Origin: Saprospiraceae bacterium
GTDB taxonomy: Bacteria > Bacteroidota > Bacteroidia > Chitinophagales > Saprospiraceae
Length of the DNA stretch: 64,000 nt
Reading direction: 5' to 3'
Assembly: GCA_016714985.1 (NCBI GenBank)
Contig: JADKBS010000032.1
Span: 11,036-75,035 of the forward strand
The number at the start of each line of letters is the position of its first letter. The first letter of the stretch is position 1. The notes beneath the pieces were generated by a model. That model was not told the origin of the DNA. It searched no databases and saw nothing but the letters and a program-made list of their open reading frames with translations. Both the position numbers and the translations under genes were made by a program. Positions 3,261 to 56,789 of the stretch are shown here, piece after piece.

Positions 3261-3665
3261 ATGCACACCACCAACTACTTCAACACCTTCATCGAAATAG
3301 CCGAGGACTGCCCCATCAGCGCTGCCGAGGTGCCGCCCCAGAAGGGCGAGGCCAAGTCGGTGGCCAACCTGCAATTCGAGCTAATCGAGCAGCATCCCTA
3401 CCAGTACACCTCTGATGACGTGATTTTTGGCATCCATGCGCTGCGCAATGGACTGCCCAACAACGAGGCTGAACGGGCGGCTTTTTTCTCCAAAGGCCAA
3501 GCCTGCCTGCGCTCCTCGCCGTTGGGCAAGCGCTATGCTTGGGGCATTCACCACGATGCTGAGGGGAAAGTGGCTATATACCCAGCCGGGTCGGAGGAGT
3601 ACCAGCGACTGGCGGCTGACCCTAACTTGAAGCACACCAAGGCCATGCGCTCGAAGCGGGCTTGA
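3261..3665 (+). CDS. Small conserved hypothetical protein (resembles the DUF6157 family as I remember it)
   Basis: 134-aa ORF with an ATG start and no competing gene. The N-terminus MHTTNYFNTFIEIAEDCP and the overall size fit a small bacterial family of unknown function. The family name is unverified. Confidence 0.55.
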   Translation: MHTTNYFNTFIEIAEDCPISAAEVPPQKGEAKSVANLQFELIEQHPYQYTSDDVIFGIHALRNGLPNNEAERAAFFSKGQACLRSSPLGKRYAWGIHHDAEGKVAIYPAGSEEYQRLAADPNLKHTKAMRSKRA

Positions 3666-3738
3666 GTTCCACTCATTTCCCATTTTTGCCTTCCCATATT
3701 TTTTTCAATAAATTCTCCGCCCTTTGTCCGACCTCGTG

Positions 3739-3768
3739 CAACCCGTTCGTCAGCGGGTTGTGTTTTGA
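3739..3768 (+). terminator. Hairpin plus T-rich tail downstream of 3261..3665
   Basis: CAACCCG (3739-3745) pairs with CGGGTTG (3754-3760) across an 8-nt loop, followed by TGTTTTG. It sits about 75 nt after the stop codon. Confidence 0.4.
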
Positions 3769-3816
3769 TTCTGAAACACGATGAACCAAATTTTTTCACT
3801 CAAAATTTAAGTAAAA

Positions 3817-4170
3817 ATGGACAAGTACATGTTATTGTTTCGCACCGATTCAAACGTTGAAGACCTTTACGCCAATATGTCGCCGGAGGAGATGGAGGCA
3901 GAATTGGGCAAGTGGAACACATGGATTGGCGGTATTGCTGCCCAAGGCAAATTTGAAGGCTCGGAGGCGCTACAGCCTACCGGCAAAATCGTGACTGGTT
4001 CCAAGCTAGTGGTGTCAGATGGCCCCTATGTCGAGAGCAAGGAAATGGTCAGTGGCTACCTTATACTCAAAGCCGATAGCATAGAGGAAGCCATCGAACT
4101 ATCGCAGGGCTGCCCCATCTACGACCTTGAAGGCATCGTGGAAGTGCGGCAGATTCAGGTTTTTGGGTAG
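3817..4170 (+). CDS. YCII-related (DGPF-type) domain protein
   Basis: 117 aa. 'VSDGPYVESKEMVSGYLILKADSIEEAIEL' is the YCII/DGPF signature. Its position upstream of a COG4941-type ECF sigma gene is the usual pairing. Confidence 0.8.
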   Translation: MDKYMLLFRTDSNVEDLYANMSPEEMEAELGKWNTWIGGIAAQGKFEGSEALQPTGKIVTGSKLVVSDGPYVESKEMVSGYLILKADSIEEAIELSQGCPIYDLEGIVEVRQIQVFG

Positions 4171-4227
4171 TCATTGGTCATTGAGGTCATTGGTCATTGA
4201 GGTCATTGGGGGTCATTGGTCATTGGG
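4171..4227. repeat. Tandem heptamer-type array (TCATTGG / TCATTGAGG units, about 7 copies). It forms the left inverted arm of the four-helix-bundle cassette.
   Basis: Read directly: tcattggtcattgaggtcattggtcattgaggtcattgggggtcattggtcattggg. It starts the base after the YCII stop codon and is the reverse complement of the unit in array 4700-4787. Confidence 0.9.
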
Positions 4228-4308
4228 ATGTTTCAATTTATGAAAAATAGTATTTGCATAAATTGCAGCAATCGCATTGTTTTGTGATTCCATTGACCCT
4301 AATGGCCA

Positions 4309-4710
4309 ATGACTAAAATGACAAATACTATGAGCTACTTACCACTTGACGAAATCGAGGTTTATCAAATGGTAATGGATATAGGGGATGATGTTTGGGA
4401 GATTGTCATCGGCTGGGACTACTTTCTAAAGGATACTATTGGCAAGCAATTCTGTCGTTCAGCAGATTCAATTTCAGCCAATATAGCAGAGGGTTATGGA
4501 CGATTTCACTATAATGAAAACCGTAATTTCTGCTTCTATGCGAGAGGCTCATTGCTCGAATCAAAAACATGGCTAAAAAAAGCGCATAAGCGAAAAATTA
4601 TCTCAGATGATGTTTACTCAGCCATTTTGGAGAAACTTTCAAGATGCCATCTAAAACTCAATAAATACATCAAGACCATTGGCAAAACCCCACCCAAAAA
4701 TGACAAATGA
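4309..4710 (+). CDS. Four-helix-bundle protein (23S rRNA intervening-sequence protein family)
   Basis: 133 aa. 'ADSISANIAEGYGRFHYNENRNFCFYARGSLLESKTWL' matches the family signature from memory (TIGR02436-like). Alternative starts are at 4318 and 4330. The stop codon lies inside the right-hand repeat array. Confidence 0.8.
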   Translation: MTKMTNTMSYLPLDEIEVYQMVMDIGDDVWEIVIGWDYFLKDTIGKQFCRSADSISANIAEGYGRFHYNENRNFCFYARGSLLESKTWLKKAHKRKIISDDVYSAILEKLSRCHLKLNKYIKTIGKTPPKNDK

Positions 4711-4787
4711 CCCTAATGACCCTAATGACCAATGACCAATGACCAATGACCAATGACCAATGACCAATGACCCAATGACCATTGACC
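4700..4787. repeat. Tandem heptamer-type array (CCAATGA / CCCTAATGA units, about 11 copies). It forms the right inverted arm of the cassette.
   Basis: Read directly: atgacaaatgaccctaatgaccctaatgaccaatgaccaatgaccaatgaccaatgaccaatgaccaatgacccaatgaccattgacc. CCAATGA is the reverse complement of TCATTGG. The array covers both the 4HB stop codon and both candidate sigma start codons. Confidence 0.9.
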
Positions 4788-6013
4788 ATCTCTTCCGGCA
4801 CGAGTCGGGAAAGATGCTTGCCGTGTTGGTGAAGCTGTTTGGCCTCCAACAGGCCGAGGTAGCGGAGGACATCGTGCAGGAGACCCTGTTGGCAGCCATG
4901 CAAACCTGGAAGCTAAAAGGCATGCCTGACGACCCAAGGGCCTGGCTCTACCGAACTGCCAAGAACCGGACCATTGATTTTTTGCGCCGGGAGCGCAATT
5001 TCCGGGACAACATTGCTCCAAGTTTTGCGCAGCAAAGCCTCCTGAACGCAGCGCCGACCCAGTGGATGGACAGCTTTTTCTTTGATGACGAAATCGAGGA
5101 CGCACAACTCCGCATGGTCTTTGCCTGCTGCCACCCGGCCATCCCCGTAGAGGCGCAACTGTCGCTGGTGCTGCGCAGCCTGTGCGGACTTAGCAACCGA
5201 GAGATAGCCGCAGCCTTCCTCTTGCCGGAGGAGACCGTTGCGAAGCGCCTGTACCGGGCCAAGGAAAAAATCCGGGAAGAAAACCTGCGGCTGGAAGTGC
5301 CACATGGCGAGCAGCTGACGCCCCGACTGGACGCCGTGCTGCAAGCGGTTTACCTGCTGTTCAACGAGGGCTACAAGTCCGCCACCACCGACGCCATCAT
5401 CCGACCTGACCTCTGCGAAGAGGCCCTACGCCTCAGCCAACTCCTGGCAAAGCACCCTTTCACCAACTTGCCCAAGACCCATGCCCTGCTGGCGCTGATG
5501 TGCTTCCACGCCGCCCGTTTCGCCGCCCGCATGGACGAGGATGGCGGCATCGTCCTGCTGGAAGATCAAGACCGCAGCCAATGGAATCGCCGATTGATAG
5601 GGCTTGGCTATATGCACCTGCGTGACGCCTCCGCCGGGAACGTCATCAGCGAATACCACCTCGAAGCGGCCATTGCCTCCTACCATGCCTCCTCGCCGAG
5701 CTTCGGCCAAACGAACTGGAAAGGCATTTTTTACTGCTATGATTTGCTGCTGAAAACAAACCCATCGCCGATGGTGGCCATGAACAGGGCCATCGCCTTG
5801 GGATATGCCGATGGCTCAAAGGCAGGCATTGAAGCATTGCTAAAGCTGGCAGGCTTGGAAAAGAACCACTTCTACCACGCCGCATTGGGCGATTTTTGGG
5901 CAAAAAACGGGGACTCCAACAAGGCAAGGGATTGTTACGAAAAAGCCTTGCAGTTGGCACAATTGCCCGCTGAGCGGAAGGTGATGAAGGGGAAAATCGG
6001 GAAGTTGGCGTGA
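4760..6013 (+). CDS. ECF-type RNA polymerase sigma factor with a long C-terminal extension (COG4941-like)
   Basis: Region 2 is 'DIVQETLLAAMQTW...PRAWLYRTAKNRTIDFLRRER' and the region 4 HTH is 'LSNREIAAAFLLPEETVAKRLYRAKEKI', followed by a roughly 230-aa helical extension. The ATG at 4775 (MTIDHLFRHESGKM) is an equally plausible start. Confidence 0.85.
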   Translation: MTNDPMTIDHLFRHESGKMLAVLVKLFGLQQAEVAEDIVQETLLAAMQTWKLKGMPDDPRAWLYRTAKNRTIDFLRRERNFRDNIAPSFAQQSLLNAAPTQWMDSFFFDDEIEDAQLRMVFACCHPAIPVEAQLSLVLRSLCGLSNREIAAAFLLPEETVAKRLYRAKEKIREENLRLEVPHGEQLTPRLDAVLQAVYLLFNEGYKSATTDAIIRPDLCEEALRLSQLLAKHPFTNLPKTHALLALMCFHAARFAARMDEDGGIVLLEDQDRSQWNRRLIGLGYMHLRDASAGNVISEYHLEAAIASYHASSPSFGQTNWKGIFYCYDLLLKTNPSPMVAMNRAIALGYADGSKAGIEALLKLAGLEKNHFYHAALGDFWAKNGDSNKARDCYEKALQLAQLPAERKVMKGKIGKLA

Positions 6014-15611: not shown

Positions 15612-15692
15612 CTTGAAACTTAATTTGGTGAAGAATGGGGCTATAACGATATGGTGGGCTTACTTTTGTTTAAAGTCAATAAATTAACAGCC

Positions 15693-16253
15693 ATGAAAGC
15701 AGCCACCACCTTCCCCCACCAATACCTCGAGAAAATGCTCCACACCGAAGACCAGCACCTGCGAAAGCTGCACGGTCTGGTTTCCGATGCCTTGAAGGAA
15801 GAAAAATTGATTGTAAAAAACTTGCGGCAGCAATCCACGGAAAAGTCCACCACCGGCCAGCGCATTGCTGATCAAGTGGCGACCTTTGGCGGAAGCTGGA
15901 CCTTTATCATCAGCTTCGGCATGGTGCTGGCGGCCTGGATTGGTGCCAACGTGGTCATGGCCACCAAGGCATTCGATCCGTACCCGTTCATCCTGCTCAA
16001 CCTGGTGCTGTCCACCATAGCCGCCCTGCAAGCCCCGGTCATCATGATGTCGCAGAACCGCAAAGAGGAAAAAGACCGAAAACGGGCAGAGAACGACTAT
16101 ATCATCAACTTGAAGGCCGAAATCGAAATCCGCAACCTGCACCAAAAAATCAACCTGCTGATGGAGGAGCAGTTCCAGACATTGTTGGATGTGCAGAAGT
16201 ACCAAGTGCAATTGCTGGAGGAGATTGCAGGGAAGAAAGGCGGGGGTAAATGA
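15693..16253 (+). CDS. DUF1003-like membrane protein
   Basis: The ATG at 15693 (MKAATTFPHQYLEK...) is followed by two TM helices, then 'MMSQNRKEEKDRKRAENDYIINLKAEIEIRNLHQKI', as in the DUF1003 family. Confidence 0.75.
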   Translation: MKAATTFPHQYLEKMLHTEDQHLRKLHGLVSDALKEEKLIVKNLRQQSTEKSTTGQRIADQVATFGGSWTFIISFGMVLAAWIGANVVMATKAFDPYPFILLNLVLSTIAALQAPVIMMSQNRKEEKDRKRAENDYIINLKAEIEIRNLHQKINLLMEEQFQTLLDVQKYQVQLLEEIAGKKGGGK

Positions 16254-16276
16254 AATTGGGAAATTGGGAAATTGAG
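16252..16276. repeat. Short tandem array of GAAATTGG(G) units overlapping the DUF1003 stop codon
   Basis: gaaattggg aaattggg aaattgag. This is the same unit as the arms of the palindromic array at 54042-54134. Confidence 0.85.
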
Positions 16277-30083: not shown

Positions 30084-30112
30084 TTGACCGCCATATTACG
30101 ATTGGGGGTTCG

Positions 30113-30210
30113 TAGGGCGTTGCCCAACGCTAACATATTGCGCCCTTTCAGGGCTTGATGCAATGATAGCCCTGAAAGGGCGCAATATACTAGCATAGGG
30201 CAACGCCCTA
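30113..30210. repeat. 98-bp imperfect palindrome (two 43-nt inverted arms), MITE/REP-like
   Basis: Left arm: tagggcgttgcccaacgctaacatattgcgccctttcagggct. Right arm: agccctgaaagggcgcaatatactagcatagggcaacgcccta. The outer 13 nt and inner 20 nt are perfectly complementary. The arms also contain local hairpins (GGGC-GTT-GCCC and GCCC-TTTCA-GGGC). Confidence 0.85.
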
Positions 30211-30217
30211 TGAATGT

Positions 30218-30270
30218 GAAACCATAAAACCATAAAACCATGAAACCATGTAACCATGTCCCATAAAACA
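30218..30270. repeat. Degenerating tandem 8-mer array (AAACCATA/G)
   Basis: gaaaccata aaaccata aaaccatg aaaccatg taaccatg tcccataaaaca. It lies between the palindrome and the CotH gene start. Confidence 0.85.
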
Positions 30271-30310: not shown

Positions 30311-33300
30311 ATGTTTAGCAACCAAATAAAACATAATATCGCCATCATCGCAATGGCAGTCTGCACCATCCACCAAACCCACGCCCAACTCCAAATCAAC
30401 GAACTGCTCGCCATCAACACCACCGTCGCCTACGACCCCGATTTTGGCGAGTTCTCCGATTTTGTGGAGCTTCGCAATGCCTCCGACGCTCCCATCAACC
30501 TCGCTGGCTATACCCTCACCGACGACCCCACCGACGAGGGCAAGTGGGCGCTGCCAGCCCTCGAACTTGCACCCGGCCAGCACCTCCTCATCTGGACGGA
30601 CGGGCTGGACAAGCGCCCCGGTGATACGGCTTTCGTTTTCTATAAAAATGCGGTGCAAACCATGACCGCACTCCATGCCAATTTCCGCCTGAGTGGGGAC
30701 GGGGAGTACATTGGCCTGTTCAGTCCACAAGGCAGTTTGGTGGATGAACTCACTTATTGCATACAAACCAGCGATGTTTCCTACGGGCGCAATTATATAG
30801 CTGCTTCACAATGGCTGTACTTCGGGGAGCCAACACCCGGCACCGCCAATTCCCCCTTCGGCTCGGCGATGATGGAGACGCCTGGCGAGCCTGTTTTTTC
30901 CTTGCAGGAAGGTTTTTATCCGACCCCACAACTGCTGCAACTGACCACACAGGAGCCGGGCGCCGTTATCCGTTTCACTTACGATGGCACCATGCCGAAT
31001 AGCAGTTCGCCCATCTTCACCGACGATTTTGAGATGAACCTCAACCTCACCATCAAGGCGAGGCTCTACGTGCCGGGCAAGATGCCGGGCAAGGTGGTCA
31101 CGAAGACTTATTTCATCAACGAGAACAACCAGTTGCCTGTGCTGTCCATCAGCGCCAACGCCGACAACCTCTACGGCTTCGATTTTGGCATCCTGCAAAA
31201 TGCCATCAAGGATCGGGAAGTGCCCGCCACCATTGAGTATTTCGAGCCGGGCACGGGCGAGCGGGCGTTCCTCGCTGGCGTGGGGATTCGGGTCTTCGGT
31301 ACCTCCATTTACAACCTGCCGCAGCGCCCGCTTTCCGTTCGTTTTCGGGAAAAATACGGCGACGAAATCCTGAAATACCCGCTCTTCGAGGGCAAGCCCA
31401 TTCCCCGTTACTCGGCTTTTTTGCTCCGCAATGGCGGCAACGACTACAACACCGCCTACTTCCGGGACGGGCTAGGCGTCAACCTCGTCAAGGGCAAAAT
31501 GGAAGTAGACTACCAAGACTACAAGCCCTGCATCGTGTTCATCAACGGCCAGTACAACGGAGTCTATGAGCTACGGGAACGCCTCGACGAGCAGTACATC
31601 GGCAGCAACCACGAAATCAATTCCGACAACCTCGACTACCTTGAGGACAGCCTGAACGTGGTGGCGGGCGACCCCTACGACTTCCTTGCTTTGATGGATT
31701 TTGTGAAAAACAACGACTTGAGCGAACCTGCCGTTTTCGACAAGGTCGCTGCCCAAATTGACCTCAACGAATTCACCAACTACCTGATTCTCAGGGCTTT
31801 CATCGGCTACCAAATCGCCGACCTCAACAACCGCTACTGGCACAACAACGACACAAACGGCAAATGGCGCTGGATTGCCGCCGACCTCGAACACGGCTTC
31901 GGGCAGCTTGGCGGCGACCCCGTCGAGGCGAACACCATCGCCAAGCTGGCGGGCCTCTCCGGTGATTTGCCCGAATGGGCGACTCTCCTCTTCCACCAAC
32001 TGCTGCAAAACCCCGGCTTCCGGGACGGCTTCATCCAACGCTCGGCGGCGTACCTGAACACGATTTTTAGCCCAACCACCACCATCGCCACGGTGGACAG
32101 CCTGAAAAACCTGCTGCAACCCCAAATGCCCCGCCACATCGGCCGCTGGAGTTCGCCGCCGAGCATGGCCACTTGGCAGGGGAATGTCAACCAAATCAAG
32201 GCTTTTTTGCAAAACAGGCCGGGATATTACCGCCAACATTTGACCGATTTATTTGGTAAACAGGACGGCGCAATGGTTTCGATGGAAATAATCGGGCAGG
32301 GAAAAGTGCTGGTCAGCGGCGTGGCTTTTACCGAAAACATGAGCGGCCCATTTTTCAAAAATGCCAATATCACGCTGCAAGCCGTGCCAGCGCCCGGCCA
32401 CCGTTTCGTGGCGTGGCAGGGACTGAACAGCACGGACGAAAACGCCAGCCTAACGCCCCTTGACGACACGGCATTCGTGGCGGTTTTTGCGCCGCAAAAC
32501 GGAGTCAGCATCATCCCACCCGTCATTTCCTCTGACACGACCTTGGCCGCAGCCGCCTCGCCCTGGTACGGCTTCGAGGATGTGACCGTGCAGCCCGGTG
32601 CCCGCCTCACCGTAGAAGCCGGTGCTACGCTCCTGCTCACCGATGGCGTCTGCTTTGACGTGCAGGGCGGCCTGAAATTGGACGGCTCGCCCAACCAGCG
32701 CATCAGCATCCAGCCCGACCCATCGCCCTCTGCGAGGCGCTCGTTTTATGGGCAATCGGGCCGCTGGGGCAGCATCATGGCGGATGCGCCGACGGACAGC
32801 CTCATCGTCCGTTACACCGACCTTCGGGGCGGCAGTTTCGGGCGGGACAGGGGCCGCCATTTTTCCATCATCTCCGCTTACAGCACCAACCTGCGGGTGG
32901 AGCACTCGACCATTGCCGAAGGCAAAGCACCCCTGATTGCTAGGGGCGGCAGCGCTTACATTGGGCACTCGGAGTTCCATACTTTTTCGAGTGTCAACGG
33001 CTTCATCAGCCTCTACGACATGGACGCCCCGCTCATCGAGCATTGCGTTTTCAGGGGCAACCGTGCCATCAATACCGACGCCATTGACATCAAGGGCACC
33101 ACGAACGGGGTGGTGCGGCAGAACGAGGTTTACGGTTTCCTCGGCTCCAATTGCGACGGCATTGACCTCGGCATTTATTCGCAAAACATCCTCGTGGAGC
33201 GGAACATCATCCACGATTGCTCGGACAAGGGCATTTCTATTGGTTCGCAGTCCAATGCGCTCGTGCGCCGCAACGTGATTTACGACTGTGACCTCGGCGT

Positions 33301-34879
33301 GGCGCTGAAGGACAGCCTTGCCGTCGCCCAAATTGACCAGAACACGTTTTACGGCAACCGCATCGCAGTGGCTTGCTATGAAAAAAGCGCCCTGCGGGGC
33401 GGTGGAAAAGCCTTCGTGAAAAACACGATTTTGGCAGCCAGCACCGAGGCGAGCCTGTTTTTCGATGCAAAATCCGAGATTCAGGCCAGCTACTCGCTCT
33501 CCGACCGGGAGGCGCTGCCCGGCACGGGCAACCTGCACGCAGACCCCCTGCTCGTCCACCCGACGACGGGCAATTTCGAGCTGGCCGCCAACTCGCCCTG
33601 CATTGACGCTGGCGACCCATTCTCTCCCAACGACCCCGACGGCAGCACCGCCGACATGGGCGCCTACTATACCCACACGGGCAGCTTCGGGCTGACGCTA
33701 CACGTCAACGAGTTCAATTACCATCCGCCCTTCAACTACCCCACGGGCGACTGGGTGGAACTGCACAACCGCACCGACCAACCGATTGACCTCACGGGCT
33801 GGCGCATGGCGCAGGGGCTGTACGAGTTTGTTTTTCGTGAAAATGCGGTGGTCGCTCCGGGCGGCTACCACGTGGTTTGTCAGGACACGGCGCAGTTCCG
33901 TGCCTTCCATCCCGATGCTGGCGCAATTGCCGGGAGTTTCCATTTTGACCTCAACAACAAGTCGGGCAAAATCGCCTTGTACGACCCGTCGGGCAGGCTT
34001 GTCCACAGCGTCCGCTATGCCGATTATCGCCCCTGGCCGCCACTTGCCGACGGGGATGGCGCTACCGTGGAACTCGACCAAAACCAAGAAGGCAACCTGC
34101 CCACCGATTGGCGGGAAAGCTATATGCTGCTGGGCAGCCCCGGCGAGCCGAACAGCCGACCTCTGGATATTTCGGGCTTGTTCGTGAATGAAGCCTTGGC
34201 CGCCAACACCAGCATCCTGCCTGACGAGCAGGGCGAATACGACGATTGGTTCGAGCTGTACAATGCCTCAGACGCCCCGCTGAACGTGGGCGGGCTGTGC
34301 TTCACCGACGATGAGGACGAGCCGTGCCGTTGGCAATTGCCGCTGCATTTCCCCGAACAGACGACCATCCTGCCGCACGGCTTCCTGCTGCTTTGGGCGG
34401 ATGGGGAGCCGGAACAGGGGCTGTTCCATGCCGATTTCAGGTTGAGCGCCGCTGGCGAAATGGTGGCCGTTTTTCAAAGGGATGGCGCAAGCTATGGCGA
34501 AAGGGAACGGCTTTCATTTGCGCAGCAAAGCCCCAATGTGGCGTGGGGCCGCTACCCGGACGGCAGTGCGGAACTGCGCTTCATGTACCCGACGCCGGGT
34601 GCTACGAATGTGGCTTCGGGCGTGGAGTCGTCGGGGGTTGAAGCCTTGGTGATGTTTCCCAACCCGTTTTCGGAGCAGCTTTTTATTGATGCGGGTGAGG
34701 TGGAGAAGCCTTACCGGGTGATGGTGGTGAATGCACTCGGGCAGGTTGTTTTTGAGGGGGATGGCTTGCGGGAGGAAACGGCCATTTTGCAACGAAACGC
34801 TCTGCCTGCGGGGCTTTATACGGTGGTTTTGGTGGATGCTGGGGAGAGCAGGTATGTGGGGAAGGTGGTGGTGGAGTGA
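30311..34879 (+). CDS. Giant secreted CotH-kinase-family protein with three lamin-tail (LTD) domains, a right-handed beta-helix region and a T9SS C-terminal domain
   Basis: LTD-type segments: 'LQINELLAINTTVAYDPDFGEFSDFVELRNASDAPINLAGYTLTDD', 'LHVNEFNYHPP...DWVELHNRTDQPIDLTGW' and 'LFVNEALAANTSILPDEQGEYDDWFELYNASDAPLNVGGLCFTDD'. The CotH core reads 'RFREKYG...LLRNGGNDYNTAYFRDGLG...IVFINGQYNGVYELRERLDEQY'. The C-terminus is 'LVMFPNPFSEQLFID...LYTVVLVD'. Confidence 0.8.
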   Translation: MFSNQIKHNIAIIAMAVCTIHQTHAQLQINELLAINTTVAYDPDFGEFSDFVELRNASDAPINLAGYTLTDDPTDEGKWALPALELAPGQHLLIWTDGLDKRPGDTAFVFYKNAVQTMTALHANFRLSGDGEYIGLFSPQGSLVDELTYCIQTSDVSYGRNYIAASQWLYFGEPTPGTANSPFGSAMMETPGEPVFSLQEGFYPTPQLLQLTTQEPGAVIRFTYDGTMPNSSSPIFTDDFEMNLNLTIKARLYVPGKMPGKVVTKTYFINENNQLPVLSISANADNLYGFDFGILQNAIKDREVPATIEYFEPGTGERAFLAGVGIRVFGTSIYNLPQRPLSVRFREKYGDEILKYPLFEGKPIPRYSAFLLRNGGNDYNTAYFRDGLGVNLVKGKMEVDYQDYKPCIVFINGQYNGVYELRERLDEQYIGSNHEINSDNLDYLEDSLNVVAGDPYDFLALMDFVKNNDLSEPAVFDKVAAQIDLNEFTNYLILRAFIGYQIADLNNRYWHNNDTNGKWRWIAADLEHGFGQLGGDPVEANTIAKLAGLSGDLPEWATLLFHQLLQNPGFRDGFIQRSAAYLNTIFSPTTTIATVDSLKNLLQPQMPRHIGRWSSPPSMATWQGNVNQIKAFLQNRPGYYRQHLTDLFGKQDGAMVSMEIIGQGKVLVSGVAFTENMSGPFFKNANITLQAVPAPGHRFVAWQGLNSTDENASLTPLDDTAFVAVFAPQNGVSIIPPVISSDTTLAAAASPWYGFEDVTVQPGARLTVEAGATLLLTDGVCFDVQGGLKLDGSPNQRISIQPDPSPSARRSFYGQSGRWGSIMADAPTDSLIVRYTDLRGGSFGRDRGRHFSIISAYSTNLRVEHSTIAEGKAPLIARGGSAYIGHSEFHTFSSVNGFISLYDMDAPLIEHCVFRGNRAINTDAIDIKGTTNGVVRQNEVYGFLGSNCDGIDLGIYSQNILVERNIIHDCSDKGISIGSQSNALVRRNVIYDCDLGVALKDSLAVAQIDQNTFYGNRIAVACYEKSALRGGGKAFVKNTILAASTEASLFFDAKSEIQASYSLSDREALPGTGNLHADPLLVHPTTGNFELAANSPCIDAGDPFSPNDPDGSTADMGAYYTHTGSFGLTLHVNEFNYHPPFNYPTGDWVELHNRTDQPIDLTGWRMAQGLYEFVFRENAVVAPGGYHVVCQDTAQFRAFHPDAGAIAGSFHFDLNNKSGKIALYDPSGRLVHSVRYADYRPWPPLADGDGATVELDQNQEGNLPTDWRESYMLLGSPGEPNSRPLDISGLFVNEALAANTSILPDEQGEYDDWFELYNASDAPLNVGGLCFTDDEDEPCRWQLPLHFPEQTTILPHGFLLLWADGEPEQGLFHADFRLSAAGEMVAVFQRDGASYGERERLSFAQQSPNVAWGRYPDGSAELRFMYPTPGATNVASGVESSGVEALVMFPNPFSEQLFIDAGEVEKPYRVMVVNALGQVVFEGDGLREETAILQRNALPAGLYTVVLVDAGESRYVGKVVVE

Positions 34880-52465: not shown

Positions 52466-52510
52466 CCCTCTCACCCTCTCACTCTCTCACCCTCTCACCC
52501 TCTCACCCTC
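52466..52510. repeat. Tandem 8-mer array (CTCACCCT, about 5 copies) abutting the stop codon of the response-regulator segment
   Basis: ccctctca ccctctca ctctctca ccctctca ccctctca ccctc. The last base is the first base of the minus-strand stop triplet (52510-52512). Confidence 0.85.
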
Positions 52511-53424
52511 TAATTCTCCACCCCCGCCAGCCTATCCCGCCACTCCACGGGCGTCATGCCGAACTCCTGCTTGAACACCCGCCCGAAATAGCCGGGGTCG
52601 TTGAAGCCGGAATCGAAGGCCACGGAAGTAATGGTCAGGTGCTGGTTTTCGAGCAGTTCCTTGGCCTTTGCTAGCCGGATGTTTCGAATGAACTTCGTGG
52701 CCGAGCAGCCCGTCAGCGCCGAGAGCTTGCGGTGCAGGTGCGAGTGGCTCATGCCTATTTCCTTGCAAAGCCCCTCCACGTTGAACTCGGCATCGTCTAA
52801 ATGGGCTTCCACTGCACGGCGCACTTTCCGTACGAAATAGTCTTCTGATTCCTTCATTTCAGGGGCAACGGGTTTGGTCAATTTCAATGGGAAATGCTCC
52901 CCGCCAATGCCTGCCACGCTACGGTAGTGGCGTTGCAAGCGGCGGCGGGTTTCCAGCAGGTTGCGGATTTGCAGCAGTAGCTCTTCCCGATGAAAAGGCT
53001 TCGCCAGATAGGCATCTGCCCCCTGCTCCAGCCCTTCCAAGCGGCTCTCGACACCCACTTTGGCTGTGAGCATGATAACCGGGACGTGGCTGGTGCGCTC
53101 GTCGTTTTTCAAAAAACGGCACGCCTCATAGCCGTTCATCACGGGCATCATCACGTCCGTCACCACGAGGTCGGGGATTTGCTGTGTGGCCAATTCGACG
53201 CCTTCTTGCCCGTTGACAGCGCTTACCACCCTGTAATTGCTTGACAAACAGGCCTTTAAGTAGGTCATTACATCAGGGTTGTCCTCCATGAGCAACAGCA
53301 AAGGCAGGCCGTTTTCATCGCCACTCCTGTTTTCTACTCCGCCAATATTTTCCCCGATAGGAAAAATTGCTAAAGGAGAAAGGGCAACTTGTAATTCCTC
53401 ATCGGCAATCTGTTCCTTAAGCAA
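52510..53424 (-). CDS. Receiver (REC) + AraC-type HTH segment, most likely the C-terminal part of one hybrid two-component system gene together with 53370..56789
   Basis: 'LLLLMEDNPDVMTYL...DLVVTDVMMPVMNGYEACRFLK...VIMLTAK' is REC. 'GMSHSHLHRKLSALTGCSATKFIRNIRLAKAKELL...VAFDSGFNDPGYFGRVFKQEFGMTP' is the AraC HTH. Its frame stays open upstream through the kinase 3' end. Confidence 0.85.
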   Translation of the reverse strand: MLKEQIADEELQVALSPLAIFPIGENIGGVENRSGDENGLPLLLLMEDNPDVMTYLKACLSSNYRVVSAVNGQEGVELATQQIPDLVVTDVMMPVMNGYEACRFLKNDERTSHVPVIMLTAKVGVESRLEGLEQGADAYLAKPFHREELLLQIRNLLETRRRLQRHYRSVAGIGGEHFPLKLTKPVAPEMKESEDYFVRKVRRAVEAHLDDAEFNVEGLCKEIGMSHSHLHRKLSALTGCSATKFIRNIRLAKAKELLENQHLTITSVAFDSGFNDPGYFGRVFKQEFGMTPVEWRDRLAGVEN

Positions 53425-56400
53425 ATCCGTTTTACGTCCAACGCTGATAGGAACTGAACCCTGCCCCCCAATCGTAAATCCCCAATGGGTATCGCCACCA
53501 CAAACTCCGCCCCTTCCCCTCCTCTGCTTCGGGCCACAATCTCCCCGCCCATCAGTTTCACGAACTCCTTCGTCAAGGCCAGTCCGATGCCGCTGCCTTG
53601 GTACTGCGCCGACTCAGTGGCTTGGAAAAAGCGGTCGAAAATTTTTGGCAATTTCTCCGCTGGGATGCCGGGGCCTGTGTCCCGAACCTTGAGGAGCAGG
53701 GTAGGGGAGCCGCCCTGCGGGCCGGGTTGCTGCGCAACGGAGACATAGACATTTCCACCTGCTGGGGTGAACTTCACTGCATTGGACAACAGGTTCGATA
53801 ACACCCGTTGCAGCTTTTCGGCGTCGAAGTCCATCACCAGTTCATCGAGGTCGGAGAGGAAGTGCAGGCCAAGCTGCTTGTCCGAGGCCATGGAGTGGAA
53901 ATTATTGGTGACGTATTTCAAATAGCCCACCACGTCGCCCTGCTGGAGGTTCAGGCGCTCGGCGCCGTTTTCCATTTTGGCCAATTCCAGCATCTGGTTC
54001 ACAAGGCCGAGAAGGTTTTGCCCGTTCCGCTCAATGAGGTCGAAATTGGAAATTAAGGAAATTGGGAAACTAGGGCCCTGCTGTACCGAAGCCCCAATTT
54101 CCGAATTTCTCAATTTCTCAATTTCCAATTTCCCGTTTTCAACCATACCGAGAATAATCGTCAGCGGCGTCCGAAACTCGTGCGTGATGTTCGCAAACAA
54201 GCGGTTCTTCGCATTGTCCAACTCCTTCAATCGCAGTGTCTCCTGCCGTTCCATGCGGCGGTCGAGCAGGAAGCGGTATGCCACGAAAATTGCGCCAGCA
54301 ACCATGAATGCGTACAGTGACCATGCCCACCAAGTGAGCCACCACGGCGGCGAAATGGCCACCACCACCGAGGTTTCCTTGCCCCAAACGCCGAAGCTGT
54401 TCGCCCCACGCACCCGGAACTGGTAGGTGCCCGGCGGCACTTTCACGTAGGTCGCCTTGAGGTCTTGGCCCGCCACCCGCCATTCGTCGTCAAAGCCTTC
54501 GAGCTTGAATTCGAGGCGGTTGGCGTCGGGGTCGTTGAAGTCGAGGGCTGAGAAGCTGAAGTTGAACACGTTCTCATCGTGCCTCAATTCCAGTGGGCTT
54601 AGCTGGCCCATTGCAGCGTCATAGCGGCTTTCGGGGCCGTCGGCGTCCAGCAGCTCGAAGCCAGTGATGCGCACGGCTGGCGGGGTAGTGTTCAAACTAT
54701 CGAGCTGTCGGGGGTCGAAATAGTGCAGGCCGCTGCGCCCGCCGACGAAGACCAGGCCCTCCTCGTTCTTGAAAATGGCGTCCTGCTCGAAGGGTAGCGC
54801 CGAAAGCCCACTTGTCCCGCCGTAGGAGAACACGGTCTCTTTCACGGGGTCGAAGGCCAGCAGCTTATCGGACAGTACCCAAAGGCGTCCGTCATTGTCC
54901 ATGGTCATGCCTTTTAGGTGGCCGCCCTTCGTGCCGAAGCGGTTTTGGTCGAAAAAGCCGCATTCGCCCGTTTCGGGGTTCAACTTCAGCAGCCCGGCGT
55001 CAAGGCAGACCCAAATGAAGCCGTTTTCGTCCTGTGCGGGCGGGCTTTGCCAGAAATTGCTGCCTTCCGGCACATCGTTGATTTTGTAGCGGGTGAATTG
55101 GTGGGTCGCTGGCGCAAAACGGGTGATGAAGAACGGCATTTTCGTTGCGTCCTTGCCGCCGCCCGTTATCCATAGCGCCCCTTCGTTGTCCATGAACAGC
55201 TTCCCTGTGTAGTCGTGCGGCAGGCTGTTCGGGTCGCCTTTTTTGCTCCGCAATGCGGTGAACTGCTCCGTTTTTCCATCGAAATGCACAAGGCCAGCGC
55301 CATAAGTGGCCAGCCATAGGTTGCCTTTTTTGTCTGCCAAAACATCCCGTAGCGGTGCGGCTGGCAAGCTGTTCGGGTCGCTTTTTTGATGCACAAATGG
55401 CTTGGCCTGCTTGTGCTCCAAGTCGTAGCGGACGAGGCCACCAGCCGACTTCATGCCCCAGATTTTGCCTTCGGCACCCTTTACGATTTTCTCGCTACCA
55501 GCCAGCGCGGCGTCCTGTTCACTGTACTGCGGCGCTTTGGAACCTCCCTGCGGCTGCGTACTAAGCTTGCCCAGCAGGTTTTCTTTGGTGGAAAACAGGA
55601 TATTTCGCTGACCGTCCTCGCAGATGCTCTTCACGGCGTCGGTCTTTGTGGGCAGATACACGGCATTGAACATGCCCCGCTTGCCCGCCGTGCGATAGAC
55701 CCGTGCGCCATCTGAGGCCGTGCTGAACCAACGCACCCCGTCCTTCGATTGGAAGCCCGCCCAAGCATTGTTTTCACGGAGGTAACTGCCCTTTTTACCA
55801 TCGGAATTGTAAATCCGGGCTTGGCCCGTGGCGGGGTCGTAGCATTTGATGCCGCCCGCCCAGTTGCCAATCCAAATCAGGCCGTCCTTGTCCTCGAAAA
55901 GGAACGTTACCTGCGAGCGCCAATTGGCATTTCCCTTGGGGATGCTAAGGCTGTTTTCGTCGCCTTCGTTCTTGAATCGCTTGAAACTGCCGCTCGCCTT
56001 GTCCATGCGGTGCAGCCCGTTGCCGTCCGTACCGACCCAGAGGTTGCCTTTTTTATCTTCGTAAATGGCCCGTACTTCATTGTTGATGAGGGTGGTCGGG
56101 TCGTTTTTTTTATTCAAAAAGCGGTCGAAATCGTTGGTTTCGGAGCGAAAGCGGTTAAGGCCGCCCGCGTCATCGCCATCGAAAAAGAAACCCGTACCGA
56201 CCCAAAGCGTGCCCTTCGAGTCAATAAGCAGCGAGCGCACTTGGTTGCAACTGAGGCTGTGCTTGTCGTTGGGGATGTTCTGGTAGCGCACGATGTCGCC
56301 CGTGCGGGGGTTGAGCCGGTCGAGGCCACCCATGGTGCCCACCCAGATGTAGCCGTCCTCATCTTCGGCGATGGCGCTGATGGCATTGTCGCTGAGGCCC

Positions 56401-56789
56401 TGCCGCCCGCCGAAGTAGCGGGTAAAGCGGTTGGTGCTGGGGTCATAGTGGTTGAGGCCACTGCCCCAGGTGCCTATCCAAAGCGAACCGTCGCTGGCCG
56501 GGAAGATGCACTCGATATAGTCCCCGGAGATGGAGCGGGGGTTGTTGGGGTCGTGCAGGTAGGTGCGGAACTGGTTGCCGTCCCAGCGGTGCAGGCCGTA
56601 CTGCGAGCCAAACCACATATAGCCGTAGCGATCCTGCACGATGGCCTGAACGTGGTTGCCCGGCTCGCCGTTCGGCAGTTCGAACTGCTGGAGGTCGAGC
56701 GCATCGAGGCGGTTGGTGGGCTGCTGGGCAATTGCCCCCCCGATGGGAAACAGTAGAAGGAGGAATAGCCGGGTGATTGATTTCTTCAT
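53370..56789 (-). CDS. Sensor part of the hybrid two-component system: periplasmic two-component-regulator propellers + Y_Y_Y + TM + HisKA + HATPase_c
   Basis: Repeated 'LW(I/V)GTxxxGLxR(Y/F)' propeller blades, Y_Y_Y 'YQFRVRGANSFGVWGKE', TM 'WWLTWWAWSLYAFMVAGAIFVAY', H-box 'FANITHEFRTPLT' and 'VRDTGPGIPAEKLPKIFDRFFQ...GSGIGLALTKEFVKLMGGEI'. The last ~35 codons (after '...FVVAIPIGDLRLGG') are out-of-frame tail. Confidence 0.85.
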   Translation of the reverse strand: MKKSITRLFLLLLFPIGGAIAQQPTNRLDALDLQQFELPNGEPGNHVQAIVQDRYGYMWFGSQYGLHRWDGNQFRTYLHDPNNPRSISGDYIECIFPASDGSLWIGTWGSGLNHYDPSTNRFTRYFGGRQGLSDNAISAIAEDEDGYIWVGTMGGLDRLNPRTGDIVRYQNIPNDKHSLSCNQVRSLLIDSKGTLWVGTGFFFDGDDAGGLNRFRSETNDFDRFLNKKNDPTTLINNEVRAIYEDKKGNLWVGTDGNGLHRMDKASGSFKRFKNEGDENSLSIPKGNANWRSQVTFLFEDKDGLIWIGNWAGGIKCYDPATGQARIYNSDGKKGSYLRENNAWAGFQSKDGVRWFSTASDGARVYRTAGKRGMFNAVYLPTKTDAVKSICEDGQRNILFSTKENLLGKLSTQPQGGSKAPQYSEQDAALAGSEKIVKGAEGKIWGMKSAGGLVRYDLEHKQAKPFVHQKSDPNSLPAAPLRDVLADKKGNLWLATYGAGLVHFDGKTEQFTALRSKKGDPNSLPHDYTGKLFMDNEGALWITGGGKDATKMPFFITRFAPATHQFTRYKINDVPEGSNFWQSPPAQDENGFIWVCLDAGLLKLNPETGECGFFDQNRFGTKGGHLKGMTMDNDGRLWVLSDKLLAFDPVKETVFSYGGTSGLSALPFEQDAIFKNEEGLVFVGGRSGLHYFDPRQLDSLNTTPPAVRITGFELLDADGPESRYDAAMGQLSPLELRHDENVFNFSFSALDFNDPDANRLEFKLEGFDDEWRVAGQDLKATYVKVPPGTYQFRVRGANSFGVWGKETSVVVAISPPWWLTWWAWSLYAFMVAGAIFVAYRFLLDRRMERQETLRLKELDNAKNRLFANITHEFRTPLTIILGMVENGKLEIEKLRNSEIGASVQQGPSFPISLISNFDLIERNGQNLLGLVNQMLELAKMENGAERLNLQQGDVVGYLKYVTNNFHSMASDKQLGLHFLSDLDELVMDFDAEKLQRVLSNLLSNAVKFTPAGGNVYVSVAQQPGPQGGSPTLLLKVRDTGPGIPAEKLPKIFDRFFQATESAQYQGSGIGLALTKEFVKLMGGEIVARSRGGEGAEFVVAIPIGDLRLGGRVQFLSALDVKRICLRNRLPMRNYKLPFLL
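53466..53481. repeat. Solo copy of the CCCCAATCGTAAATCC 16-mer at the kinase/receiver junction
   Basis: It is identical to 56954-56969. It adjoins the C6 run (53464-53469) where the two HTCS reading frames can be joined. Confidence 0.85.
54042..54134. repeat. 93-bp palindromic double array of GAAATTG(N) units, in-frame inside the kinase coding sequence
   Basis: Left arm: gaaattggaaattaaggaaattgggaaac. The 21-nt spacer tagggccctgctgtaccgaag contains AGGGCCCT. Right arm: ccccaatttccgaatttctcaatttctcaatttccaatttccc, the reverse complement of GAAATTG-type units. It encodes GKLEIEKLRNSEIGASVQQGPSFPISLISNF between the H-box helix and 'LIERNGQNLLGLVNQMLELAK'. Confidence 0.85.

Follow-up and report, generated by a model that had tools for sequence, protein, structure and literature searches.

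A four-helix-bundle gene between complementary heptamer arrays

We analysed a 64,000-nucleotide stretch of contig JADKBS010000032.1 from a Saprospiraceae bacterium (the window, whose numbering is used throughout unless a comparison locus, given as an L number, is named). Near its left end, between a gene of the YCII family and a gene for an extracytoplasmic function (ECF)-type sigma factor, lies a small gene of the four-helix-bundle (4HB) family carried by the intervening sequences (IVSs) of ribosomal RNAs, and this gene is enclosed by tandem arrays of a 7-nt unit that are reverse complements of each other. Positions 4171-4788 are very probably an inserted, hairpin-bounded 4HB cassette that belongs to a recurrent class. 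The features of the locus, all on the + strand, are as follows.

3736-3763, +: terminator-like hairpin upstream of the YCII gene, with a 12-pair stem and a T run after it
3817-4170, +: YCII-family gene, the upstream host gene (PF03795, E=1.6e-12; 85% identical to the YCII of L001)
4170-4227, +: 5' arm, a (G)TCATTG(G/A) tandem array (Tandem Repeats Finder, repeat finder, pattern search)
4228-4289, +: AT-rich inner spacer with a small palindrome, 4229-4246 / 4253-4270 (sequence reading, repeat finder)
4290-4326, +: proximal array of the right-arm type, just 5' of the 4HB start (repeat finder; 37 nt, 78% complementary to the 5' arm)
4330-4710, +, with an in-frame alternative start at 4309: 4HB gene, 126 aa (PF05635, TIGR02436)
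4699-4788, +: 3' arm, an (AATGACC)n tandem array (Tandem Repeats Finder score 121, 12.1 copies, 90% matches)
4760-6013, +: ECF-type sigma gene, the downstream host gene (Pfam Sigma70_r2, Sigma70_r4_2, DUF6596, TPR)

The 5' arm, (TCATTGG)n, measures 57 nt and holds 7.1 copies by Tandem Repeats Finder. It runs from 4171 to 4227, with 4170 as its first base when the last letter of the YCII stop codon (TAG, 4168-4170) is included. At the other end, the 4HB stop codon (TGA, 4708-4710) falls inside the distal array, which also covers both candidate sigma starts, ATG 4760 and ATG 4775. The original prediction for this locus had placed one array immediately after the YCII stop and its reverse complement over the 4HB stop and both sigma starts, and had named the enclosed gene a 23S-IVS-type four-helix bundle; all three statements are borne out, the last of them by the family matches described below. 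The proximal array (4290-4326, CCATTGACCCTAATGGCCAATGACTAAAATGACAAAT) was absent from that prediction. Together with the distal array it brackets the open reading frame (ORF) as a direct repeat, and an exact 12-mer, AAAATGACAAAT, stands at both 4315-4326 and 4697-4708. The alternative 4HB start at 4309 lies inside the proximal array, and homologues begin at the residues MSY, which correspond to position 4330. The window copy is atypical in having the inner AT-rich spacer and the proximal array, and the arrangement of three arrays recurs in a close relative (L081).

The repeat is specific to the cassette. The 14-mer TCATTGGTCATTGG, allowing at most 2 mismatches, is found at 11 places in the 64 kb, always within 4171-4785 (shuffled sequences: mean 0.57, maximum 3), and the AATGACC unit is found nowhere else in the window. 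A CRISPR-like array is ruled out by the 7-nt units and by the lack of spacers between them. Because the unit CAATGAC holds both ATG and TGA, each of the three frames of a pure array meets both a start and a stop within 21 nt. Where host ORFs cross such arrays (window 4708-4790; L094 3220-3262), the in-frame TGA has been removed by single-base changes or by 8-nt units.

The enclosed protein belongs to the rRNA intervening-sequence family

The 126-residue product matches PF05635 (23S_rRNA_IVP) with 81.3 bits against a cut-off of 33.8, over profile positions 2-105 of 106, and the NCBIfam model TIGR02436, 'four helix bundle protein', with 85 bits against a cut-off of 24. No other family in Pfam or NCBIfam was matched. 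Homologues are numerous (4,880 at E<1e-5), and the 36 invariant positions common to 30 homologues of 54-80% identity indicate that the protein is under strong constraint.

An AlphaFold2 model (pLDDT 87.5) is a four-helix bundle with helices at residues 10-26, 31-55, 61-87 and 93-116. The best Foldseek matches are Xcc0516 (2gsc; template modelling (TM) score 0.85-0.95, root-mean-square deviation 1.0), which a profile search also finds with E=3.2e-6, and BT_0352 (2rld; TM 0.75-0.87). Each of these two entries holds five chains, and Xcc0516 has been described as a homopentamer (PMC4990558). Next in the Foldseek ranking comes Avd, the accessory protein of diversity-generating retroelements (4dwl, 8ub7; TM 0.7-0.85). 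A resemblance of PF05635 to Avd has been noted before and a common superfamily suggested (PMC10053308). Sequence identity to Avd is 7-11%, and the free-standing 2gsc/2rld family is closer, at 21-23% with better TM scores.

The cassette interrupts a conserved gene pair

The host operon, an ECF sigma gene with an adjacent YCII/DGPF-type gene, presumably belongs to the ECF42 group. Its sigma factor combines regions Sigma70_r2 and r4 with a TPR-bearing C-terminal extension, and the gene directly upstream is of the YCII family. A scan with the sigma protein, at one genome per species, gave 80 loci from many phyla, which were searched by tblastn with the YCII and 4HB proteins of the window. In most of the 80 a YCII homologue lies directly upstream of the sigma gene and ends within about 150 nt of the sigma match; a 4HB homologue was found by tblastn in none of them (0/80). 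Wider YCII-sigma gaps, in L003 and L004, are filled by other ordinary genes with no 4HB among them.

The nearest relative, a Saprospiraceae metagenome-assembled genome (MAG; locus L001) with a sigma protein 83% identical to that of the window, has a YCII-sigma spacer of only 78 nt. Homology between the window and L001 ends at the YCII stop and resumes at 'CATCT(C/T)TTCCGGCACGA', near 4787. The element therefore occupies the entire spacer, and the first 5-10 codons of the sigma gene are written in repeat: the window protein begins MTNDPMTIDH-LFRHESGK (MTIDH- from ATG 4775) and that of L001 MSESEKVHQTATH-LFRHESGK. Since 0 of 80 related loci hold a 4HB gene and L001 has a spacer of 78 nt, we read the cassette as an insertion that, judging from these alignments, appears to have replaced a short YCII-sigma spacer together with the first sigma codons. 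Repeats in the L001 spacer that look partly complementary by eye were considered as an empty-site hairpin and rejected, as the spacer folds no better than its shuffles (z=-1.06).

The ORFs scanned in window 1-15 kb yielded no transposase, integrase or reverse transcriptase; 5 of the 10 newly scanned ones had no Pfam match. The comparison of spacers among relatives that had been proposed for this locus and the scan of ORFs agree with what was claimed at the outset, namely that YCII and this type of sigma factor are normally adjacent (as in most of the 80 loci), that the unit between them is a discrete insertion, and that, among the named ORFs of that interval, it carries no recognisable transposition gene.

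The same layout recurs around other four-helix-bundle genes

Comparison loci came from an exact look-up, which gave two close relatives (P0003, 74% identity; P0015, 60%), and from a metagenome scan queried with the alignment, which gave 80. For each locus, 250 nt upstream of the ORF were aligned with the reverse complement of 250 nt downstream and scored against 30 dinucleotide shuffles, with a score of at least 15 as threshold. Flank complementarity lay above all 30 shuffles in 72 of 81 4HB loci. After removal of repeated samples of one site, 52 of 70 loci (74%) reached the threshold. Control ORFs from the same loci did so in 5 of 72 cases (7%; 4% without two second 4HB genes). Besides these two genes, the five high-scoring controls include one that looks like a Y1 transposase by sequence: a RAYT-like gene flanked by repeated palindromes (L132 3933-4613), the sole unrelated control with such flank complementarity.

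The stems have a median length of 28 pairs, with at least 20 pairs in 47 of the 52 loci. Tandem Repeats Finder resolves the arms into locus-specific units of 7-11 nt whose downstream form is the reverse complement of the upstream one; examples are TGGTTCAT/AATGAACT, GGCACTCG/CCCGAGTG, TAATCAT/TGATTAT, GATGATGA/CATCATCT and GAAATTA/AATTTCC. GAAATT-type arms surround 4HB genes in other organisms as well (L140, L144, L146). As the units vary by locus and between divergent paralogues, it is complementarity that is conserved, not sequence.

The layout is also present in a complete isolate genome, that of a Pedobacter (CP060723.1; L176 1893-2460), and so is not an artefact of metagenome binning. There the cassette splits the classical thyA-folA pair, 30 of the 35 positions of its arms (L176 1896-1930 and 2435-2469) are paired, and the 3' arm takes in the start codon of folA. 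A further cassette, whose protein NCBI assigns to Mucilaginibacter sp. SG564, stands between a CBS-domain gene and an NAD kinase gene (L178, from a public-run assembly). Other copies of this architecture, on whose existence the original prediction had staked itself, are thus found at about 74% of independent 4HB loci and in isolate genomes. For genome annotation it matters that arrays overwrite the beginnings of downstream genes, both the start codon and the N-terminus; sigma here and folA in Pedobacter are examples. Moreover, a culturable Pedobacter carrier, and perhaps a Mucilaginibacter one, makes cutting of the stem, coupling, protein binding and copying of the cassette testable.

Arms are inherited with the gene and copied with it

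Related 4HB genes at unrelated sites share the type of arm. Of the two close relatives, L081 has the gene upstream of a peptidase M16 gene and L083 between purH and an HhH-GPD gene, and both are flanked by ATGAC-type heptamer arrays, GTCATT-type upstream and CAATGAC-type downstream. More generally, arms with GTCAT upstream and ATGAC downstream occur in 12 of 32 loci at or above 45% identity to the window protein and in 2 of 38 below it, and never in reversed polarity. Where one locus holds two 4HB genes, divergent paralogues (L104, L146 and L171; 24-33% identical) have quite different arms, and near-identical copies (L094 and L116; 80-81%) have arms in common.

In L094 an operon holds two copies of the cassette, one in each of two successive spacers. 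Of these, the copy at 2455-2925, the second, is complete, and the copy at 1311-1510, the first, has kept both arms, the ORF start and a middle piece, and the rest is deleted. The cassette has been copied here to a nearby spacer with its arms included, and the deletion is one route by which gene-less arm pairs arise. At the purH/HhH-GPD site, seen in 10 metagenomes (L083-L092), the 4HB protein is identical throughout, and the upstream array has 12-27 units and the downstream array, wherever its flank is complete, 29-45, which reflects either rapid change in length or collapse of the repeats in assembly.

The cassettes sit in operon spacers and face with their hosts

The upstream neighbour is on the same strand as the 4HB gene in 42 of 45 loci and the downstream neighbour in 32 of 40; both are co-oriented with it in 26 loci and both opposed in 1. 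Towards the host genes, the median distance is -1 nt between the end of the upstream stop codon and the start of the 5' arm, and 8 nt between the end of the 3' arm and the initial ATG of the downstream frame. On the inner side, the median gap is 44 nt between the 5' arm and the 4HB start codon, and 8 nt between the 4HB stop codon and the 3' arm. The gap ahead of the 4HB start codon is shorter than 35 nt in 23 of 52 loci, too short for a promoter. Taken together, these positions indicate that the cassettes fill operon spacers completely, that the stem closes next to the host stop and start codons, and that there is often no space for a promoter of their own.

In the window, the hairpin at 3736-3763 likely marks the start of a YCII-4HB-sigma transcription unit. 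No terminator-like site was found between YCII and sigma, and since there is one upstream of YCII, the three genes are probably transcribed together. A scan for sigma-70-type promoters, with a model that does not cover those of Bacteroidota, gave none on the + strand of the element.

The arms can pair into a long stem

Local alignment of the upstream flank with the reverse complement of the downstream flank scores 35 in the window, far above dinucleotide shuffles (9.3 +/- 1.2, maximum 12.5). The best pairing joins 4170-4226 with 4736-4786 through 50 pairs and 1 mismatch, and the repeat finder reports many pairs of 14-17 nt stretches that are 100% complementary between the two arms. Folded as RNA, 4150-4810 reaches -207.4 kcal/mol, as compared with -158.4 +/- 7.3 for shuffles (z=-6.7). 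That the arms could form a long stem looping out the 4HB gene, as had been proposed, is therefore upheld by the fold. In the minimum-energy structure the left arm is divided between the proximal and the distal arrays. Its pairing with the proximal array spans the 37 nt of that array and closes an 80-nt loop, and the corresponding local hairpin (4160-4340) folds to -71.7 kcal/mol (z=-8.4). An Rfam scan of 3600-5000 found no family and no rRNA. Only sub-threshold models of plant microRNA precursors came up, and these match through hairpin shape alone.

A proposed mobile, IVS-like cassette read through from host promoters

The account that we favour, with a probability of roughly 0.6 for the whole of it, is that of a mobile, rRNA-IVS-like cassette that occupies operon spacers and is read through from host promoters. 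Transcription would usually enter from the upstream host gene, here from a promoter ahead of YCII, because no terminator intervenes. In the transcript the arms would pair into a stem of about 50 bp, in which the 5' arm may take either the proximal (4290-4326) or the distal (4699-4788) array as its partner. The 4HB reading frame would then be looped out and the YCII stop brought beside the sigma start. By analogy with rRNA IVSs, such a stem would be the expected substrate of RNase III, whose cut would set free a 4HB message that is paired at its ends. The proposal that the stem works at the level of RNA and is cleaved by this enzyme we rate at slightly under even odds. The arms would be part of the element and move with the gene, growing and shrinking fast by slippage while their complementarity is kept. 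Of this account, we observe the anatomy, the insertion, the recurring layout with its orientation and boundaries, the joint inheritance of arms and gene and the copying to a neighbouring spacer, and we infer the read-through transcription, pairing in RNA as opposed to DNA, cleavage by RNase III, what the protein does and how the cassette moves.

Several observations weigh against this account. If selection acted on the sense RNA, G.U mismatches in the arms should outnumber A.C mismatches; across loci there are 58 of the former and 62 of the latter, so nothing marks sense RNA over DNA as the level of pairing, and the test leaves a role in RNA neither supported nor excluded. In the window two arrays compete for pairing with the 5' arm, and those that flank the ORF immediately are direct and not inverted repeats. 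The 62-nt AT-rich spacer could hold an internal promoter of the Bacteroidota type, and a reading by eye for a TAnnTTTG motif there is ambiguous; with a promoter of its own in that spacer, the 4HB message would contain the 5' arm only through read-through. About one quarter of the loci have no clear arms, nor has the copy on a Pseudanabaena plasmid (38% identity, the sole match in a plasmid collection), which means that arms are not obligatory. The direction of the event, insertion as opposed to loss, rests on parsimony over the 80 sigma loci, of which even the nearest is already 15-17% diverged, and the repeat copy numbers come from short-read assemblies and may be unreliable.

The arms might instead act in DNA, where hairpins or cruciforms, formed in the single strands of replication or in supercoiled DNA, would be structure-specific substrates for copying, with the 4HB pentamer or a host enzyme as the mobility factor and RNA folding as an incidental property; integron attC sites, the ends of IS200/IS605 elements and REPINs (hairpin-forming pairs of repetitive extragenic palindromes, REPs) invite comparison. 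Arms that are Watson-Crick complementary with no G.U bias (58 versus 62) are what this explanation would expect, and it is further served by the copying of the cassette with its arms to unrelated sites and into a neighbouring spacer, by the length polymorphism of the arrays, as slippage in DNA predicts, by a complementarity kept through sequence change, which fits template switching between the arms, and by the look of the one control with comparable flanks, a REP-flanked Y1 transposase. Recognition of the ends by sequence is unlikely, however, because divergent paralogues in one locus have completely different arms. Nor is there a transposase, integrase or reverse transcriptase among the scanned ORFs or an evident target-site duplication, and co-orientation with host transcription (26 loci versus 1) is not predicted by a process in DNA unless expression of the gene needs read-through. 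We regard an explanation in DNA, with RNA folding incidental, as unlikely; pairing in DNA is compatible with the read-through cassette that we favour and may coexist with a role in RNA. It is also conceivable that the hairpins are ordinary simple-sequence ones of this genome, akin to the heptamer hairpins in cyanobacterial operon spacers, that they already stood in the YCII-sigma spacer, serving mRNA stability or translation coupling, and that a functionally unrelated 4HB gene came to lie, or was kept, in the loop. The window does hold arrays without a 4HB gene at gene junctions (16252-16274 and 52466-52523) and an inverted pair (54042-54134), the L001 spacer has short AATTGAG-type repeats, and 7-bp repeat hairpins without a gene inside are known between hupS and hupL (PMC2670836). 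Yet related 4HB genes at unrelated sites share unit and polarity, complementary flanks are found at 74% of 4HB loci and at 7% (4%) of controls, AATGACC is confined to the cassette within the 64 kb, the L001 spacer has a different unit and a fold no better than chance (z=-1.06), and full cassettes can give rise to arm pairs without a gene, as the deleted copy in L094 shows, all of which makes a pre-existing hairpin very unlikely.

The likeness of the 4HB protein to Avd, both in the published comparison (PMC10053308) and in our model (TM 0.7-0.85 to 4dwl and 8ub7), raises the thought of a diversity-generating retroelement of which the repeats would be a part. We rejected it and give it next to no credence. 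No reverse transcriptase occurs among the ORFs scanned in window 1-15 kb, no pair of template and variable repeats was seen in 3400-5800 by eye or in 4100-4850 with the repeat finder, the repeats that are present are tandem units of 7 nt, and identity to Avd (7-11%) is below that to the 2gsc/2rld family (21-23%). It is tempting to speculate, with the odds strongly against us, that 4HB cassettes are master copies in the manner of the REP-associated tyrosine transposase (RAYT) genes and their REPINs: an Avd-like pentamer would maintain or spread hairpin repeat arms by their structure and not their sequence, and loss of the gene would leave gene-less arrays. If true, this would explain the heptamer hairpins of the short tandemly repeated repetitive (STRR) type in Cyanobacteria and Bacteroidota, including arrays in reading frames such as those of the histidine kinase at 54042-54134 and of the ArsA-like gene in L094, and how intervening sequences reach rRNA genes.

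Relation to known elements

The closest parallel to the cassette is the rRNA IVS. That of Coxiella is 428 nt long, has a 28-bp terminal stem with an S23p-family ORF in its loop, related to Xcc0516 (2gsc), and is cut by RNase III (PMC4990558). The statement made at the outset, that rRNA IVSs with this gene family are bounded by stems and excised by RNase III, accordingly matches the literature. Like the IVSs of Leptospira and Coxiella, the cassettes form part of a host transcription unit, lack a mobility gene and hold a PF05635 gene in a loop that a terminal stem closes, and the base of the stem rejoins the host flanks. Stem lengths are alike, 28 bp in Coxiella against a median of 28 pairs in the cassettes (about 50 in the window). 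The host, on the other hand, is an mRNA operon spacer in the window and not helix 9, 25 or 45 of 23S rRNA, the arms are short tandem repeats of variable copy number, and the window copy has a third array and alternative pairings. Cleavage by RNase III has been shown for the rRNA elements, whereas for the cassettes we infer it. Ralph and McClelland, as cited in a later paper (PMC4990558), proposed long ago that these elements can move and that their ORF serves the movement. Genes of the 4HB family have also been reported between cas genes, for example cmr3 and cmr2 (PMC3936711).

The arms themselves recall repeats known from cyanobacteria. The window unit is, as had been suggested, a rotation of TTGGTCA, which is presumably STRR2 of Mazel et al. 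1990. Cyanobacterial STRRs, like the cassette arms, are tandem 7-nt units in operon spacers, often as inverted pairs that form hairpins (PMC2670836, PMC4692102); three tandem heptanucleotides are reported in Calothrix (PMC4692102), and for the 7-bp repeat hairpins between hupS and hupL transcript stabilisation or translation coupling was proposed (PMC2670836). The window differs in that its arrays enclose a gene and that its host belongs to the Bacteroidota (a type IX secretion system sorting domain is present, and the nearest relative is a Saprospiraceae MAG) and not to the filamentous cyanobacteria. We found no published link between STRRs and 4HB genes, and a literature search for the heptamers themselves brought up only unrelated papers. 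TAACTGA heptamers, too, form arrays at gene junctions, in Beggiatoaceae, Cyanobacteria and Bacteroidetes, in a patchy distribution across phyla that suggests horizontal spread; their unit is a different one, most of them form direct repeats a short way ahead of a start codon, and no 4HB gene has been reported with them (PMC4679880).

Two further systems share single traits with the cassettes. RAYT/REPIN systems also have a single small gene flanked by inverted, hairpin-forming repeats and gene-less hairpin forms elsewhere in the genome, but the 4HB protein has neither the HUH/Y1 motifs nor the fold, REPs are conserved within a genome where cassette arms differ within one, and any link between gene-less arrays and 4HB genes is conjectural. 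With Avd the likeness is one of four-helix-bundle fold; its low identity to the 4HB protein, the lack of a reverse transcriptase among scanned ORFs and the lack of a template/variable pair in the inspected stretches set it apart.

The gene family, the rRNA elements and the heptamer arrays are each known; an IVS-like operon-spacer cassette with arms of tandem repeats is apparently undescribed. Our literature search found nothing that links four-helix-bundle or IVS-protein genes to flanking tandem or inverted repeats outside rRNA, which is not proof of absence. In the cassettes an IVS-type gene, a terminal stem and short tandem repeats are joined in one recurring architecture of ordinary operons, among them thyA-folA, purH and a glycosylase gene, and cas genes. 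The origin, the mobility and the purpose of rRNA IVSs and of the ORF conserved in them have been questions since the early 1990s. The meaning of heptamer arrays in the genomes of cyanobacteria and Bacteroidota is another such question, and the arrays have been treated as unexplained (PMC4679880, PMC4692102, PMC2670836).

Arrays without a four-helix-bundle gene

In-frame and gene-less arrays fit an origin from 4HB cassettes, and this is no proof of it. In the window, inverted GAAATTGG/CCAATTTC arrays (54042-54134) stand in frame within a hybrid histidine kinase gene (ORF 53370-56789, - strand), just past the H-box. They fall in the loop of the HisKA domain, and at this place the protein is 18 residues longer than 11 homologues (the HisKA match covers 83 residues for a profile of 66 positions), and in the sense RNA the pair folds to -46.1 kcal/mol (z=-5.5). 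An in-frame pair also occurs in L094 (3144-3262), a GGTCAGG-type array followed by a CCAATGACC-type one inside the gene of an ArsA-like ATPase; here the TGA of one unit is changed to TGT and the frame stays open.

Three further arrays of the window lie at or near gene boundaries. GAAATTGG is repeated 2.9 times at 16252-16274, beginning within the stop codon of ORF 15651-16253, and CCCTCTCA 5.8 times at 52466-52523, between two co-directional genes on the minus strand. The third, TGAAACCA in 5.2 copies at 30217-30258, is upstream of ORF 30311-34879, and directly 5' of it lies a near-perfect palindrome of about 100 nt (30100-30215, tagggcgttgccc...gggcaacgcccta) with the look of a REP-type element.

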